From a virus, in the UHGV virus genome UHGV-0117107: DNA of 17,495 bases. One strand, given 5' to 3'. The position numbers and the translations under genes are program-made. The notes beneath the pieces were generated by a model, which was given only the letters and a program-made list of their open reading frames with translations, ran no database searches and was not told the DNA's origin. Positions 2,819 to 8,438 of this stretch are shown in pieces (the first letter of the stretch is position 1; each line of letters starts with the position of its first letter).

Positions 2819-4237
2819 TTACAGTAGCTCGTTAACTCGATCCTGAATTTTCTGAATCATGTTGTGATCGTATCCAGCTTTTGCGAGGGCATTAATTCGT
2901 GCATCTCCATTACCGTATTTTCCGGCAATGACATCACGGGCTACATTATCAATCACTATCTGATTTACTTTCTTCTGCACAGTGTCTGGATTATAACCAG
3001 CTTTCTTGAGAGCAGACACACGAGCATCACCATTACCCCATTTACCGGCGATTACTTCTTTAGCAATTTCATCGATAGATTTGGTCGGTTTTGGCGTAGA
3101 TGTAGGTTTAGATGTTGGTGCTGGTGTGGAAGAACTTTTCGCATATTTTGGTCTAGCAAAACCACGAATCATACCCCAGCCAACCGGAATGGTACGTCTT
3201 GCTACTGCTTCTCCTCTGTTACCTTCAATCGCTGTGATTTGTCCGTTTGAAACAGATTCCACATACCCGATATGATCAGAATATCCGTCGTTTGGCTGAG
3301 TCTTATCATCCCAGTTATAAACAATTACATCACCAGGTTTCGGAGTAATGGTGCCGTCCTCGACCCAAATGCCTTTCTGCTTAAAAATCTTAATATGTTC
3401 CTCACAACCAACTTCTGTACCGATGAGATCGACTGCTCCGGATTTGATAGCTGCTGCTGATACTGTACAATCACACCATTCATCATTAGGTTTAATAGCG
3501 TATCCGCGAGCCAAAGGTTTGTGAGAATTATAGATGTTAAGAATCTCAATATATTTACCGTTAGCTTCAGAATAACCGAGCCAACTTCTCATAACATTAA
3601 GAACGTCCTGTGCTGTTACACCCAATTCCGTATCCTCCTGTTTTCCGTAAAAATAGTTCATGTCGACTTTACCTTTAATACCGCCTACAGTTCCGGAACT
3701 CGTATACTGATGAACCAAACAACCGTAATCTGCTTTTCCGTTATAATCAGCGAGCCAGAATTTGTACTGTTTAATCAGATCATGATTATACCAATTTCGA
3801 TAGTAGTCGATATTTGCGTAGATTCCAGCTTTGTATCCCTGAGATTCTACGTACTCACAAAAGATTCTTGTAAAGTTATTACATTCATTTTTACCAAGTC
3901 TCACACCTTTTGCAGCTGCTTTCTTGACTGTGTCATATTCGAAATCTGCGAAGATGATTGTGTTTTTATCAAGACCAGCTTTTCTAACAACATCAACACA
4001 GAATTTTGCTTCGTCAAGTGCGCCCTGTTCGTTTAAGGCATAAATAAAATGGTAAGTTCCTATAATCGGAATCTTGTTGTTTTTACACCCATTGACATAC
4101 TCATAGAATTTTGAATCTACTGTCTTCCTGTAAGAAGATCTAAGAATCGCGAACTCTATTCCGGAGGACTTGACTTTAGAAAAATCTACATCTCCCTGCC
4201 AATAGCTGATATCAATTCCTTTCTTCACAATCATCAT
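2819..4237 (-). CDS. Modular peptidoglycan hydrolase (endolysin-type): N-terminal GH25 muramidase, central CHAP/NlpC-P60-like cysteine peptidase, Ser/Thr/Pro linker, two C-terminal CW_7 (Cpl-7-type) cell-wall-binding repeats
   Basis: 472-aa ORF. N-terminus GIDISYWQGDVDFSKVKSSGIEFAILR and later HQYTSSGTVGGIKGKVDMNYFYG match the GH25 signature; central WCDCTVSAAAIKSG ... DHIGYVESV ... TAIEGN fits a Cys/His/Asn CHAP-like domain; linker KSSSTPAPTSKPTSTPKPTKS; two repeats EVIAGKWGNGDARVSALKKAGYNPDTVQKKVN and DVIAGKYGNGDARINALAKAGYDHNMIQKIQ. Start ATG overlaps upstream stop (ATGA). Confidence 0.88.
   Translation of the reverse strand: MMIVKKGIDISYWQGDVDFSKVKSSGIEFAILRSSYRKTVDSKFYEYVNGCKNNKIPIIGTYHFIYALNEQGALDEAKFCVDVVRKAGLDKNTIIFADFEYDTVKKAAAKGVRLGKNECNNFTRIFCEYVESQGYKAGIYANIDYYRNWYNHDLIKQYKFWLADYNGKADYGCLVHQYTSSGTVGGIKGKVDMNYFYGKQEDTELGVTAQDVLNVMRSWLGYSEANGKYIEILNIYNSHKPLARGYAIKPNDEWCDCTVSAAAIKSGAVDLIGTEVGCEEHIKIFKQKGIWVEDGTITPKPGDVIVYNWDDKTQPNDGYSDHIGYVESVSNGQITAIEGNRGEAVARRTIPVGWGMIRGFARPKYAKSSSTPAPTSKPTSTPKPTKSIDEIAKEVIAGKWGNGDARVSALKKAGYNPDTVQKKVNQIVIDNVARDVIAGKYGNGDARINALAKAGYDHNMIQKIQDRVNELL
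2822..3080 (-). repeat. Two tandem CW_7-type cell-wall-binding repeat units (coding, C-terminus of the lysin)
   Basis: Two ~40-aa protein repeats with the (V/I)IAGK(W/Y)GNGDAR...AGY core; the underlying DNA segments are visibly similar (approx 2860-2950 vs 2980-3070). Confidence 0.7.
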
Positions 4238-6013: not shown

Positions 6014-6319
6014 TTAATAATATAGCGTTAATACATCGTGATTGAGATTATCGGCTTTATACAGCCTATCGTAAGAGCAGTATGGAAGTTCCATAAGCTT
6101 CTGTATAACAGGATTATCCGGTAATTTACTAATCACGGTAATGTCATATTTCCTACGTGTTAAATATGTTGAGTTGTTAGCTTTCATGGTTTCGATATCA
6201 CTTAATGAATACACAATAGCTGGATAACTCATTTGAAGTGACGCTGGGGGTTGATAGAAAACCTGGTTACTACCAAGAAGTTCTTCAAGTTTCGCTTGTA
6301 GTTCTAATCTACTAGCCAC
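6014..6319 (-). CDS. Putative tail completion / head-tail joining protein (DUF3168-like pattern)
   Basis: ORF track gives 6014..6334, but the codon at 6334 is TTG with no Shine-Dalgarno; an in-frame GTG at 6317-6319 is preceded by GGGGGTG, so that start is preferred (about 101 aa). Translation ASRLELQAKLEELLGSNQVFYQPPASLQMSYPAIVYSL... fits the recalled pattern of small tail-completion proteins. Lies directly upstream of the major tail gene. Confidence 0.4.
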   Translation of the reverse strand: MASRLELQAKLEELLGSNQVFYQPPASLQMSYPAIVYSLSDIETMKANNSTYLTRRKYDITVISKLPDNPVIQKLMELPYCSYDRLYKADNLNHDVLTLYY

Positions 6320-6629
6320 GCCACACACCCCCAATCGATAATATCAGTCTAGGATACTGAACTTCGACGTCTGTCACTTTCCATTTCTCATTTGAGAATT
6401 CAATCCAAGTCATGGCAGATACATGATCTCTGGCGTAGGGATCGGCCACTATACTAATCTGGTTTGAGATATTAATATCATCGTTAACGTTTCCAGAATT
6501 CTGCCGTTTCCACCGATTGCTCATGATATCACCAAAATACTGACGTTCGACGATTTCATCTTCTATCCAGACACCAGGCTCAACCTCGCCAGTATAAGTA
6601 AATCCGATCTTCCCACACCATTTATTCAT
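6312..6629 (-). CDS. Putative head-tail adaptor / head closure protein
   Basis: 105-aa ORF directly downstream of the capsid gene; RBS GGAG within AAAATGGAGTGATAGAAC upstream of ATG. Assignment mainly by position and size; weak resemblance to head-closure proteins. Confidence 0.4.
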   Translation of the reverse strand: MNKWCGKIGFTYTGEVEPGVWIEDEIVERQYFGDIMSNRWKRQNSGNVNDDINISNQISIVADPYARDHVSAMTWIEFSNEKWKVTDVEVQYPRLILSIGGVWRG

Positions 6630-6653
6630 GTTCTATCACTCCATTTTGAATTG

Positions 6654-8399
6654 TTAGGCAGTTTCTTTCACGAATTCAAGAGCTACTGCGGAATACGGTT
6701 TAACAAGTGTACCGGAGCAACGTGTCTCCATAAGATACTTCTGCTTGTTGTAATCGATATCGAAATCATCGAAGAAGTTGATTTCTCCACCCTTATCTGT
6801 ACCTACGTTGTAATCTTTAAGATTTACATAGATACCAGCAAGCTCATATGTCTTATTTTCATCGTCTGTTCTTGTAAGACCTTCCATTACCGGAACCGGA
6901 ACGATTTCTCTTACGCGAAGAGATGCTGCAAGTTTCTGTACGCTATCATAGATAACACGTCCGTTTGTATCTTCAATGAGCAAGCAATCTGTAAGCATAT
7001 CCTCAGACATGAACATATCAGGGTTGCCAGATCCTTTATAATTCTTTCTGGATTTGATGCAAGCTTTGATGAATGCCTTAGCTTTCTCTTCAGCAGTAGC
7101 GGAATCGCTTACATTGATAGCTGCTTTAACTGTGAAAAGATCTTCCATCTTCCAGATAGGTCTGATGCAGTCCTCATTGATTTTATCGTTAGCCTCTTCA
7201 ACCGGATCTCTTCCATCACCGATAAGGAATGCGCGAGCAAGTTCCTCATCAAGCATCATACGAACTTCTCTCTTCAGCCATGGAAGAATATCGAAATCTG
7301 TAATATCAAGCATGTCATCGCGATCTAATGCCTGTTTCTTGTATACAGTTGTTGGATTTGTTACACGTTTGAGAAGCTTAAATACTTCTTCAATTTTAAG
7401 TTTGCCTTTCTGGTATCCCTTTGCTCTAGCCTGTGCTGCTGTGATGTCAGCAAAGATAGTTTTGATACGGGAGAACGGTGTGTGATGTACTCCGCCAAGT
7501 ACTTTTGATACCCAATCGTCATTACGTTTGATAAATTCCGGTTCATTGTTAAGATTCTTTGCATCCGGGAATAAGATGTCAATGTCTGTGATACCATGAG
7601 CAAGCACTGCCTCTTTAAGAGAACCTGAGCGTTTCGCATCTTCGAAAATCGCAGTCATCTCGGAGTGTGTAAGCACATCATCTGCCATAGGGGTTTCATT
7701 GTCGAATACGTTGTGTTTCATATTTTTGTTTCCTCCTTCATTTTCATCATCTTCTTCGGTTTCAACACCAGCATCTTCTAATGCCTGTCCGATCATAGCG
7801 TACACAACAGTTTTCTGTTTCTCAGAAAGAGTGTTGAATACATCAGCTACAGTTTCGTCCTTATTTTCTTCGGCATTATGTTTTTTGGTTTCTTCTGCCA
7901 TTTTTTCTTCTCCTTTCTCAGAAGTATCTGCGTGGAACAATGACTCCACATTTTCGATATATTCGCCTGAGCTGATATATCCCTCTTCATAAGAATCTTC
8001 GCCATGCATCATGACAGACTCTATTACTGCGCCTGGATTAGCACCAGCTAAAACCAAACTAAGCTCACGAATGACTCCGTGAACTACATTACTTCCCTGC
8101 TGTTTAAGTCTGTTGGCATATATGGAAAATCTATTCACATCACCATGCTGAACCAGCAATTTAGCATTCTGCCCTGATTCCGTATCGTTAAATGTGCAAT
8201 ATGCATACACACCTTCGTCCCTGTTTTCCAGCAAGGCATGACCGAGCACTTCATCTACGCTATTATGCTGATGATTCCAAACTAACGGTACAGTTTCACC
8301 ATCGCACTCTTTGAATGCATCTTTCATGATGACTCTACCGTCCGCACACAGCATGTCAGCTTTAGTAGCCCAGCCAGAACAATCATATGACTTAGCCAT
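6654..8399 (-). CDS. Prohead protease - scaffold-like linker - HK97-fold major capsid protein fusion (581 aa)
   Basis: N-terminal ~140 aa carry prohead serine protease-like motifs (WNHQHNSVDEVLGH, RFSIYANRL, ELSLVLAGANPGAVI); residues ~150-330 are an acidic, charged linker (EDSYEEGY...ETEEDDENEGG); the C-terminal ~250 aa end in LAGIYVNLKDYNVGTDKGGEINFFDDFDIDYNKQKYLMETRCSGTLVKPYSAVALEF, resembling HK97-family capsid C-termini. ATG preceded by AAAAGGAGGCAGAAAATCAAA. Confidence 0.8.
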   Translation of the reverse strand: MAKSYDCSGWATKADMLCADGRVIMKDAFKECDGETVPLVWNHQHNSVDEVLGHALLENRDEGVYAYCTFNDTESGQNAKLLVQHGDVNRFSIYANRLKQQGSNVVHGVIRELSLVLAGANPGAVIESVMMHGEDSYEEGYISSGEYIENVESLFHADTSEKGEEKMAEETKKHNAEENKDETVADVFNTLSEKQKTVVYAMIGQALEDAGVETEEDDENEGGNKNMKHNVFDNETPMADDVLTHSEMTAIFEDAKRSGSLKEAVLAHGITDIDILFPDAKNLNNEPEFIKRNDDWVSKVLGGVHHTPFSRIKTIFADITAAQARAKGYQKGKLKIEEVFKLLKRVTNPTTVYKKQALDRDDMLDITDFDILPWLKREVRMMLDEELARAFLIGDGRDPVEEANDKINEDCIRPIWKMEDLFTVKAAINVSDSATAEEKAKAFIKACIKSRKNYKGSGNPDMFMSEDMLTDCLLIEDTNGRVIYDSVQKLAASLRVREIVPVPVMEGLTRTDDENKTYELAGIYVNLKDYNVGTDKGGEINFFDDFDIDYNKQKYLMETRCSGTLVKPYSAVALEFVKETA

Positions 8400-8438
8400 T
8401 TTGATTTTCTGCCTCCTTTTTAATTAACTTAAACTGCA

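Follow-up and report, generated by a model that had tools for sequence, protein, structure and literature searches.

Positions 6654 to 8399 of UHGV-0117107 virus genome DNA raise the question of how a phage builds its head when protease, scaffold and capsid functions appear to be encoded by a single gene, and whether that gene makes one product or two. The window referred to below is the whole stretch of DNA that was analysed (17,495 nucleotides). The plus strand over this interval contains many stop codons, and a 581-aa ORF with an ATG start is read on the minus strand. The main parts of the gene are:

6654..8399, minus strand: complete ORF of 581 codons plus stop (ATG at 8399-8397, stop at 6654-6656)
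8412..8416, minus strand: Shine-Dalgarno (SD) sequence GGAGG serving the full-length protein, 12 nt ahead of its ATG
8010..8399, minus strand: prohead serine protease domain of the HK97 gp4 / Peptidase_S78 type, aa 1-130 (Pfam, hhalign, AF2)
7722..8009, minus strand: acidic linker, aa 131-226, predicted to be disordered outside a helical motif (charge, pLDDT)
6657..7721, minus strand: HK97-fold major capsid protein region, aa 227-581 (Pfam, Foldseek)

The full-length product of this ORF is a 65.2 kDa protease-linker-capsid protein. Its aa 2-576 aligned with positions 2-566 of the 603 positions of the profile phrog_3270 (E 9e-216), and collinear homologues run into thousands. All 8000 database candidates scored matched the protein at E<=1e-5, and the best 120 of these 8000 were 581-662 aa long. 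When matches were clustered at 50% identity, 781 clusters were obtained at E<=1e-30, and the best 150 of the 781 ranged from 547 to 1084 aa. At least 80% of the query was covered in all 246 matching phage records, many of which carry a fusion-protein annotation for the homologue.

A frameshift, a sequencing error or an assembly error might have joined separate protease and capsid genes. In Streptococcus phage Javan400, which has a distant homologue (24.5% identity over 84% of the query), the protease gene (QBX27614) and the adjacent capsid gene (QBX27613) lie in one frame with a single TAA between them, and losing this one stop would merge them. However, the same 581-aa protein was recorded on two contigs (P0002), relatives of 581-583 aa with 91-94% identity were found on independent contigs, and 246 phage genomes carry the fused ORF, Sanger- and Illumina-finished isolates among them. 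The linker is not spanned by an ORF in any other frame. Merging of two genes by error was ruled out by the collinearity of the homologues across the linker, and we give it practically no probability. The fused gene is thus confirmed as real. The fusion survived the test for an error in the linker that the initial annotation had named, and its reading of protease, linker and capsid in one ORF was borne out by Pfam matches to both domains, by phrog_3270 and by AF2 and Foldseek.

For the N-terminal domain, Pfam PF04586 (Peptidase_S78) matched aa 17-94 with 27.6 bits against a cut-off of 21, and the same family is annotated for most of the 120 closest homologues. In hhalign, the domain aligned with residues 25-158 of HK97 gp4 (probability 94.6%, E 7e-8). 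H43 and S92 were paired with H65 and S114 of gp4, respectively, which are the catalytic His and Ser of that enzyme. The two codons are:

8271..8273, minus strand: codon of H43 (CAT), aligned with catalytic His65 of HK97 gp4 (hhalign)
8124..8126, minus strand: codon of S92 (TCC), aligned with catalytic Ser114 of HK97 gp4 (hhalign)

H43, S92, D87, E112 and H132 were invariant in 86 diverse family members and nine cultured phages. When AF2 was given a diverse alignment, the 10-residue blocks between aa 11 and 120 had a mean pLDDT of about 90 or more. As to a fold like that of herpesvirus assemblin, a Foldseek match to the KSHV protease 5ur3_A (probability 0.99, E 0.011, TM 0.36) was obtained only from the first AF2 model, which was of low confidence (pLDDT 59), came from a shallow alignment limited to relatives of 73% identity or more, and was superseded by the diverse-alignment model. 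The protease-like N-terminal domain described initially is thus upheld by the Pfam score above cut-off, the gp4 alignment and H43/S92.

It is very improbable that this domain has degenerated into a protease fold without catalytic activity, serving only as scaffold or core, with maturation proceeding without proteolysis or through a host protease. Such a reading could draw on the shortness of the domain (130 aa, compared with 225 aa for HK97 gp4) and on the modest Pfam score. Yet in the alignment the catalytic His and Ser of gp4 have exact counterparts in H43 and S92, and the five invariant residues are kept across members only 46-58% identical, which would be unexpected for a dead enzyme, as well as across phages of five host genera. 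Since the catalytic His and Ser of gp4 align with the invariant H43 and S92, self-processing of the 581-aa precursor is plausible. A literature search returned no experimental data on products, N-termini (sequencing or mass spectrometry of mature capsid) or cleavage for any family member.

The C-terminal part was matched marginally by Pfam PF05065 (Phage_capsid) at aa 358-575, with 24.5 bits against a cut-off of 24.2. The profile searches on the two halves that had been suggested initially therefore gave matches over the gathering score for both, each only slightly above its threshold. The diverse-alignment AF2 model had a mean pLDDT of 81, with capsid blocks mostly above 90 from about aa 290 to 575 and confident folding of the capsid region from about aa 285. 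In Foldseek, the C-terminal part matched the HK97 capsid 1ohg_A (TM 0.70, E 1e-11). GTA 6tb9 and T5 8zvi were also among the 386 PDB matches at E<=1e-3, and the best 50 of these 386 were all phage, GTA or archaeal-virus capsids or encapsulins. PDB sequence searches with the protein and with the family profile gave nothing meaningful. When the family profile was aligned with HK97 gp5 by hhalign, the match lacked significance (probability 1%), so it is Pfam and the fold that carry the capsid assignment. On these two lines of evidence, the HK97-like C-terminal domain proposed earlier holds. The Lys-Asn isopeptide cross-linking residues of the HK97 type do not define the fold in general. No second capsid-like ORF was found in the window.

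Between the two domains, aa 136-235 contain 28 Asp and Glu against 9 Lys and Arg (net charge -19, pI 4.3), and AF2 pLDDT fell below 50 at aa 131-143, 159-180 and 211-243. The linker had been described as an acidic, charged stretch of about 180 residues. It is indeed acidic, but the unstructured spacer measures about 95-115 residues (aa 131 to about 226-243). The linker is not featureless, as a conserved helix-turn-helix motif lies inside it, and a shorter conserved motif was also recognized:

7767..7859, minus strand: conserved helix-turn-helix motif ETVADVFNTLSEKQKTVVYAMIGQALEDA, aa 181-211 (alignment consensus, AF2)
7926..7940, minus strand: short motif L-F-H-A-D, aa 154-158 (alignment conservation)

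The helices of the longer motif were placed at aa 184-189 and 193-211 with pLDDT 68-79 in AF2. By HMM, one copy was counted in 11 of 120 close relatives and two tandem copies in the remaining 109; representatives of the 50% clusters had 0-5 copies, and the window protein has one. The motif is likely to be a scaffold or coat-binding element. Throughout the family, every copy of the helix motif is preceded by the pattern [LVI]-x-H-[AS]-[DE], and H156 of L-F-H-A-D is invariant or nearly so. Speculatively, L-F-H-A-D may be a protease cleavage site.

The gene lies in a conserved module with the order TerL, portal, 581-aa fusion gene, DUF7253, tail terminator and major tail protein. This order was conserved in 18 related loci, with the fusion between the portal and the head-tail genes, and no separate protease, scaffold or major capsid protein gene was found in the conserved head module of these 18 loci. 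Within the module, the 6654..8399 gene alone accounts for protease, scaffold-like element and major capsid protein. The neighbouring orf111 (8439-8774) was considered as a separate scaffold gene and rejected, having no family match and no homologue in the 18 related loci. The 6654..8399 ORF is the gene for head assembly in a siphovirus whose host is a Gram-positive gut bacterium, and its known lineage includes FP_oengus, the Lactococcus 1706-like phages and the actinobacteriophage clusters AM, AU, BI and DJ.

The protease-linker-capsid fusion has already been described in many phages and is not a new architecture. The actinophage capsid-protease fusion was described by Klyczek et al. 2017 (PMC5513430), who also mentioned the lambda protease-scaffold fusion, and again in the Giantsbane preprint. 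Shared ancestry of FP_oengus and the 1706-like phages with the actinophage clusters has likewise been described (bioRxiv 10.1101/842583). The actinophage fusions (clusters AM, AU, BI, DJ and CC) belong to phrog_3270, have the same domain order and occupy the same site after the portal and before DUF7253, and the catalytic residues and the junction start codon discussed below are common to both. They are longer (658-718 aa), reaching about 70 aa further at the C-terminus than the window protein, and their linkers vary in length with 1-3 copies of the helix motif, whereas the window protein, with its single copy and low-GC host, stands at the short end of the family. Arthrobacter phage Circum gp12 was 45.8% identical over 99% of the query and Arthrobacter phage Gordon gp13 40.4% identical to the window protein. 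Faecalibacterium phage FP_oengus AUV56564 ('major capsid protein') showed 47% identity over 99% of the query. The Lactococcus 1706-like phages P118, P162 and P1046 are further Firmicutes members (P118 and P1046 at 35-36% identity). In FP_oengus and the Lactococcus 1706-like phages, the gene order is as in the window, and the gene is annotated as capsid or as protease, never as both.

At the junction of linker and capsid domain, the following candidate start site was recognized:

7732..7736, minus strand: internal Shine-Dalgarno sequence GGAGG within GAAGGAGGA, 10 nt upstream of the M227 ATG
7719..7721, minus strand: internal in-frame ATG (M227), proposed start of a capsid-only product (conservation and SD)

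The window junction reads GAAGGAGGA-N10-ATG. Predicted SD pairing at M227 was -11.7 kcal/mol, which is in the top 0.3% of ORF windows. A product started at M227 would span aa 227-581 (355 aa, about 40 kDa). It was ruled out as a scaffolding protein, since aa 227-581 are the capsid domain without the helix motif (aa 183-211).

In all 67 homologues with DNA, a codon able to start translation lay at the junction or next to it. Those scored were 49 ATG, 9 GTG and 5 TTG, and in four further homologues an ATG near the junction was found by eye. In 271 proteins, the residue at the M227 column was Met in 252, Val in 10, Leu in 5 and Ile in one. Val at this column was encoded by GTG in 9/9 cases and Leu by TTG in 5/5, and both codons are rare elsewhere in those ORFs; the junction codon is GTG in FP_oengus and TTG in the Lactococcus phages, compared with ATG in the window. 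Among non-ATG codons, GTG or TTG made up 13 of 16 at the M227 column and 1 of 76 at other Met-majority columns (Fisher p 3e-12), while the SD Gly codon was GGA in 20 of 23 representatives against a background of 24% (p 4e-10), and both p-values overstate independence because of kinship among the junction sequences. The SD Glu codon was GAA in 17 of 17 representatives against a background of 51%. The internal SD and start codon are thus conserved, synonymous sites included.

Across 45 homologues with a GC content of 39-65%, the median rank of the junction SD window was in the top 2% of ORF windows. The median strength was -8.5 kcal/mol, compared with -8.3 kcal/mol at the true starts of the genes and -2.7 kcal/mol for the background. 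The spacing from SD to start was mostly 6-10 nt, and 12-14 nt in some members. A few high-GC members had a weak junction SD, namely L050 (-5.3 kcal/mol), Pherobrine and DizzyRudy (both -5.7 kcal/mol). P0242, P0230, P0248 and L037 showed alignment offsets at the M227 column, with ATG or GTG within a few codons; an SD-like string was present near the offset starts of P0248 and L037 and was weak in P0242. L059 was left out of the junction analysis for its disrupted reading frame. In Javan400, the second gene carries an SD and an ATG where its scaffold and capsid parts meet. The purine-rich linker, with its Glu, Gly and Lys codons, raises the chance level of SD-like strings. Within K-H-N-V-F, which follows M227, N230 was invariant among close relatives and F232 family-wide. 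As K-H-N-V-F is conserved as protein, structure or a cleavage site could account for some of the conservation of the Met. A scan of 6300-8900 for promoters and terminators found nothing over shuffled expectation.

Fusions of the same domain order have arisen independently, as in Lactococcus phage Q54 (orf21), Rhodococcus phage RRH1 (Orf7) with Arthrobacter cluster AN (Maggie gp7), the capsid polyprotein of Pseudomonas phage PAJU2, and Lactobacillus phage SA-C12. The Q54, RRH1, PAJU2 and SA-C12 fusions have no detectable sequence kinship with the window family. Q54 orf21 has S78-like and Phage_capsid Pfam matches, and in Foldseek against BFVD the whole model aligned to several independent fusions over 600-770 columns at 11-18% identity. 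For the PAJU2 polyprotein, a passage in PMC8306868 cites a proposal of autocatalytic cleavage. No junction SD with start codon was found in the Q54 and RRH1 families, indicating that the method does not flag junctions indiscriminately and also that a junction start is not general to protease-capsid fusions. The conserved internal SD and start codon of the present family may be new.

Nested in-frame genes are known from head assembly in lambda C/Nu3, Mu I/Z, P2 gpO and herpesvirus UL26/UL26.5. In these systems, two in-frame starts yield two proteins with the same C-terminal part, the longer of which bears the protease, and this nesting fixes their stoichiometry and brings the protease into the procapsid. 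The signature of the lambda C/Nu3 type, a conserved in-frame start with its own ribosome-binding site, is present here at the sequence level. In the known systems, the two products have the scaffold in common and the capsid gene is separate, whereas the part in common here would be the capsid protein itself. The window gene would thus behave as a nested pair while standing outside the protease/scaffold class.

With HK97 gp4 and gp5, the window protein has in common a homologous protease core and the capsid fold. The HK97 gene order is portal, protease, capsid, with the protease as a separate gene in a different frame, whereas the window protease is covalently fused. Javan400, whose order is as in the window, keeps the genes unfused in an HK97-like state, and its scaffold is a long coiled-coil-like segment instead of a short helix motif. 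In HK97, the scaffold function resides in an N-terminal extension of the capsid protein that is cut off by the protease, and the window linker has no detectable similarity to this delta domain. The HK97 protease itself is said, after work of Duda, Oh and Hendrix in 2013, to be targeted by its own C-terminal tail. About 60 copies of it are present per 415 capsid subunits (PMC12749128).

Taken as a whole, the locus is best explained by a nested protease-scaffold-capsid gene that combines self-processing with a capsid-only start at M227, and we consider this explanation likely. We infer protease activity, cleavage, use of the internal start and the stoichiometry of the products. The full-length 65 kDa product would consist of the S78 protease with H43/S92, an acidic flexible linker with one scaffold-like motif, and the HK97-fold capsid domain. 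Its covalent tether would replace the C-terminal targeting tail by which a free protease such as HK97 gp4 enters the procapsid. The capsid domain would build the shell with the protease and scaffold parts facing the interior, and after assembly the protease would cut the linker and the fragments would leave. The M227 site (GGAGG-10 nt-ATG, 7736..7719) would yield the 355-aa capsid-only protein, so that plain subunits and subunits bearing protease and scaffold would be mixed in the shell, and the two ribosome-binding sites would determine their proportions. The initial annotation had spoken of a single polypeptide. The ORF is continuous, but the description is probably incomplete, since the conserved internal SD and start suggest a capsid-only product too.

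The alternative, in line with the single-polypeptide reading of the initial annotation, is that only the 581-aa protein is made, with the three parts at 1:1:1 and all mature capsid protein arising by autoproteolysis, while M227 is unused for initiation. The SD and M227 would then be a by-product of Glu/Gly codons, a ribosome-binding site left over from an ancestral intergenic region, a pause site, or part of a cleavage site or N-arm. The continuous ORF, the conservation of the fusion in thousands of homologues and the invariant catalytic residues are all in keeping with it. By estimate, 415 extensions of 25 kDa would fill about one third of the interior of a T=7 procapsid, so nothing forbids a 1:1 ratio; in some members other windows of the purine-rich acidic linker score alike, and the Q54 and RRH1 fusions appear to do without an internal start. 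Against production of the 581-aa protein only stand the synonymous bias toward the SD (GGA and GAA) and the fact that Val and Leu at the junction are always GTG and TTG. Furthermore, Ile, Thr and Lys replacements, common at other Met columns, were absent at the M227 column in the Met-column comparison, and the junction SD is as strong as those of true starts. A relic ribosome-binding site should have decayed across the divergence of the Firmicutes and Actinobacteria phages (35-50% identity). We therefore regard production of the 581-aa protein only as unlikely, though deserving of serious consideration.

On balance, the nested reading probably extends to the whole capsid-protease fusion family, which would make free capsid protein together with a minority, or a comparable amount, of protease-scaffold-capsid 'delivery' subunits. 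A third form may occur in the low-GC clade from another candidate site:

7899..7916, minus strand: candidate internal start M167, with AAAGGAG at 7916-7910, a spacing of 8 nt and ATG at 7901-7899 (sequence)

A start at M167 would yield a scaffold-helix plus capsid product of 415 aa. An SD with ATG or GTG ahead of the helix motif was present in 22 of 63 homologues, mainly in the low-GC clade, FP_oengus and Circum. M167 may thus be a second, weaker and clade-specific start.

By itself, the finding of a 581-aa fusion annotates a known family correctly and makes little difference. The papers describing the fusion leave the control of protease and scaffold dose unaddressed, and a nested start offers a concrete, testable answer. 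If nested expression is true, it would extend the principle of lambda C/Nu3 and UL26/UL26.5 in a new way, with the capsid protein serving as the common module for targeting, and it would explain how protease and scaffold are dosed in phages without separate genes for them. Annotation would also be affected, since in hundreds of deposited genomes a single ORF would have two products, and so would the design of capsid expression constructs and of encapsulin- or phage-like nanocages built on this family. The uncultured gut-phage contig itself falls in the FP_oengus / 1706-like / actinophage supercluster, and the nearest GenBank record to the window was MT835495, an unannotated human faecal contig with 63% identity.

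The fusion gene is encoded on the minus strand, which the initial annotation had left unstated; the plus strand at 6654..8399 carries stops throughout. The SD sequence GGAGG lies 12 nt before its own ATG. The features of this region are:

6654..8399, minus strand: fusion ORF, 581 codons, ATG start
7767-7859, minus strand: helix motif of the linker, single copy in the window protein
8439-8774, minus strand: 111-aa ORF between the portal gene and the fusion gene; its GTG start overlaps the portal stop

The initial annotation had claimed one polypeptide combining protease, linker and capsid, and this ORF is present. Profile searches matched both families above their Pfam cut-offs, one at each end: Peptidase_S78 (Caudovirus prohead serine protease) at the N-terminus (aa 17-94, 27.6 bits, cut-off 21) and Phage_capsid at the C-terminus (aa 358-575, 24.5 bits, cut-off 24.2). 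In PHROG, phrog_3270 spans the protein end to end (aa 2-576, E 9e-216). The interdomain region is acidic (28 D+E vs 9 K+R and pI 4.3 for aa 136-235). A first AlphaFold model from a shallow alignment was of poor quality and was replaced by a second, built on an alignment of 86 sequences with identity down to 46% (mean pLDDT 81). In this second model the N-terminal domain was beta-rich and confident (block-mean pLDDT about 90 or more, aa 11-120), disorder was predicted at aa 131-143, 159-180 and 211-243, and the C-terminal domain was confident from about aa 290 with block means mostly >90. The unstructured spacer was only about 95-115 residues long, shorter than the linker of about 180 residues initially described.

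Such an ORF might have arisen if a frameshift or a sequencing error had merged two genes at the linker, but abundant collinear fused homologues refute this. All 246 phage genomes matched by tblastn covered at least 80% of the fusion protein in one frame. In the protein database, 8000 of 8000 scored candidates fell at E<=1e-5, the best 120 of them were all 581-662 aa long, and an identical 581-aa protein was present on two contigs. An exhaustive HMMER search of cluster representatives (50% identity) recovered 1685 clusters at E<=1e-3, of which 781 reached E<=1e-30; the 150 best-scoring were all 547-1084 aa, and the length differences within the family were located in the linker.

The fusion family has already been described in phages, so the architecture proposed initially was right in outline but not new. 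In Klyczek et al. (PMC5513430), the fusion protein (e.g. Circum 12) is assigned to clusters AM and AU. The Giantsbane preprint describes a fusion holding capsid, protease and scaffold in clusters AU, AM, BI, DJ and CC, and bioRxiv 10.1101/842583 links these actinophages with Lactococcus 1706-like phages and Faecalibacterium phage FP_oengus. Unrelated fusions with the same domain order are on record in Q54, RRH1/cluster AN, PAJU2 and SA-C12. The window gene is an uncultured, newly found member of this known, named family; the closest GenBank record comes from human faeces, a contig with 63% identity, and Circum gp12 matches 99% of the window protein at 45.8% identity. Unlike the window protein, the actinophage and Lactococcus homologues (Circum, Gordon, ClubPenguin, Pherobrine, DizzyRudy, RosaAsantewaa and P118) continue for about 70-150 residues past its C-terminus, which may be a decoration or Ig-like add-on.

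When the model was compared with the PDB using Foldseek, 386 matches were obtained at E<=1e-3, and all 50 of the matches listed were HK97-fold shells, including GTA 6tb9, T5, T7-like phages, actinophage capsids and encapsulins; HK97 itself (1ohg_A) gave TM 0.70 and E 1e-11. For the protease domain, profile-profile comparison of the family with HK97 gp4 gave a probability of 94.6% (E 7e-8, gp4 residues 25-158), aligning H43 with gp4 H65 and S92 with gp4 S114, which Duda, Oh and Hendrix reportedly identified in 2013 as the catalytic pair. H43, D87, S92, E112, S114 and H132 were invariant in the 86-sequence alignment and likewise in nine cultured phages whose hosts span five genera. Judged by its sequence, the domain is of the HK97 gp4 protease type. 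Structural matches to a herpesvirus (KSHV) protease were seen only with the first, weak model.

The linker carries a conserved 29-residue motif, ETVADVFNTLSEKQKTVVYAMIGQALEDA (family consensus, aa 182-210), predicted in the second model as a helix-turn-helix (aa 184-189 and 193-211, pLDDT 68-79). With a motif HMM, one copy was found in the window protein and 10 other close relatives (581-591-aa forms) and two tandem copies in 109 of the 120 close relatives, most of which (636-650 aa) contain a tandem duplication of a unit of about 50 residues comprising HAD, an acidic spacer and the helix motif. This unit occurs once in the window protein and in a few relatives of 581-583 aa. Copies of the motif ranged from 0 to 5 in the 50%-identity representatives, indicating that the number of scaffold-like elements differs across the family. 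A short sequence, [LVI]-x-H-[AS]-[DE] (LFHAD, aa 154-158, in the window protein), lies ahead of every copy. The helix motif may serve as scaffold or bind the coat, and H-A-D is a candidate cleavage site.

An SD sequence and start codon were also found inside the gene. In the window DNA, GAAGGAGGA is followed after 10 nt by the ATG of M227 (7736..7719, minus strand), right at the boundary between the disordered linker and the part of the protein that aligns with capsid structures. Since Glu and Gly codons could generate such a string by chance, 45 IMG/VR homologues (GC 39-65%, 39-82% identity) were analyzed. The window upstream of the M227-aligned codon had stronger anti-SD pairing than 98% (median) of in-frame windows of the same ORF and 96% of windows inside the linker. 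The internal SD equalled the genes' own SD in strength: the median energy was -8.5 kcal/mol at the internal site, -8.3 at the genes' own starts and -2.7 in the background, where 3.5% of windows lay at or below -8 kcal/mol; internal spacing was mostly 6-10 nt, and the SD was weak in a few high-GC members. Among 26 representatives <80% identical, the Gly codon before the aligned start was GGA in 20 of 23 (background 24%, binomial p 4e-10) and the Glu codon preceding it GAA in 17 of 17 (background 51%), indicating that the SD is kept at synonymous positions. These and the following p-values are optimistic because the homologues are related.

Across 271 family proteins, Met occupied the aligned position 252 times, Val 10 times, Leu 5 times and Ile once. 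The Val was encoded by GTG in 9/9, including FP_oengus (2-25% of Val codons elsewhere, six ORFs counted), and the Leu by TTG in 5/5, among them Lactococcus P118 and P1046 (elsewhere TTG made up 0-7% of the Leu codons, three ORFs counted). The other exceptions were alignment offsets with ATG or GTG within a few codons and, where examined, an SD-like string ahead of the start, weak in homologue P0242 (homologue P0230 fell outside this check). GTG and TTG might be mere mutational neighbours of ATG. An uncorrected alignment of 67 genes answers this objection: non-ATG codons were GTG or TTG in 13 of 16 cases at the M227 column and in 1 of 76 at other Met-majority columns (Fisher p 3e-12), where Ile, CTN-Leu and GTT-Val replacements were common. 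Conservation of the Met may be partly structural, since the K-H-N-V-F directly after it is conserved at the protein level.

No comparable junction SD and start was present in the two unrelated fusion genes of Q54 and RRH1. Streptococcus phage Javan400, a distant relative, has its protease gene and its scaffold-capsid gene in one frame, split by a single TAA. Of its 600 codons, only two that could act as starts have an SD of similar strength: the one annotated as the start of the capsid gene and an ATG where scaffold and capsid meet, at which AAGGAG-7 nt-ATG forms a strong site inside the second gene (locus L089, MK448929, 2447-4246). Javan400 seems to represent an unfused version of this design. 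The window gene has a second candidate site at M167, AAAGGAG-8 nt-ATG, located before the helix motif; it recurs in only 22 of 63 genes and is a weak lead to a further internal start. The literature searched yielded no experimental data on products of the fusion family and no published description of a nested start, although such absence is no proof that it is undescribed. We hypothesize that this conserved site acts as a nested start throughout the family.

The analysis established what the domains are, from sequence and fold, and the comparative start-site signature; protease activity, cleavage sites, internal-start use and stoichiometry are proposed as follows. The full-length protein, itself a capsid subunit, would carry protease and scaffold element into the procapsid, the covalent tether taking the place of the tail that targets a free protease. 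Inside the closed shell, the protease would cut the linker, and the fragments would leave before or during DNA packaging. Initiation at M227 would yield capsid subunits lacking both parts (355 aa, about 40 kDa), and the dose of protease and scaffold would be set by the ratio of the two ribosome-binding sites. Lambda C/Nu3, Mu I/Z, P2 gpO and herpesvirus UL26/UL26.5 follow a nested-gene logic in which the scaffold is the shared module, whereas in the nested arrangement proposed for the fusion gene the shared module would be the capsid protein.

All genes of the region are on the minus strand, in the order:

HNH endonuclease, Phage_connect_2, four DUF7211 paralogues, TerL
crAss001_48-like gene, collagen-repeat protein, portal, 111-aa orphan ORF, fusion gene
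DUF7253, tail terminator, major tail protein, tail assembly chaperone, phrog_4338
endolysin, Neck1, long TMP-like ORF

The order TerL ... portal - fusion - DUF7253 - tail terminator - major tail protein is kept in 18 related loci, including FP_oengus, Lactococcus P1046 and Arthrobacter Circum, and in 12 further metagenomic contigs. Because these 18 loci and 12 contigs contain no separate protease, scaffold or capsid gene, the fusion gene is the sole source of these three functions. The 111-aa ORF, in which an internal ATG would give 88 aa, had no Pfam or PHROG match and no homologue in the 18 loci; it was thus ruled out as a conserved scaffold and is regarded as a window-specific insertion.

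The four tandem DUF7211 (PF23847) paralogues occupy 12762-16125 (minus strand) between the connector gene and TerL (12762-13334, 13364-14500, 14518-15576 and 15580-16125; 190, 378, 352 and 181 aa), each opening with the motif ELYHHGVKGMKWGVRRYQ; their PHROG families are of unknown function, save one weak match to a virion structural protein family. The TerL-portal gap holds a collagen-repeat protein (G-x-y repeats, PF01391, tail-fibre PHROG matches) and a crAss001_48-related small protein (10035-10895, minus strand), an unusual site for a fibre-like protein, whose presence differs among relatives. The TMP-like ORF (at least 810 aa) starts near 2430 (minus strand) and runs off the window start. 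The GC content of the window is 39%. The endolysin (2819-4237, minus strand) lies within the tail/neck module, flanked by the phrog_4338 gene and the Neck1 gene (2426-2803), and its GH25, CHAP and two CW_7 repeat domains indicate a Gram-positive host.
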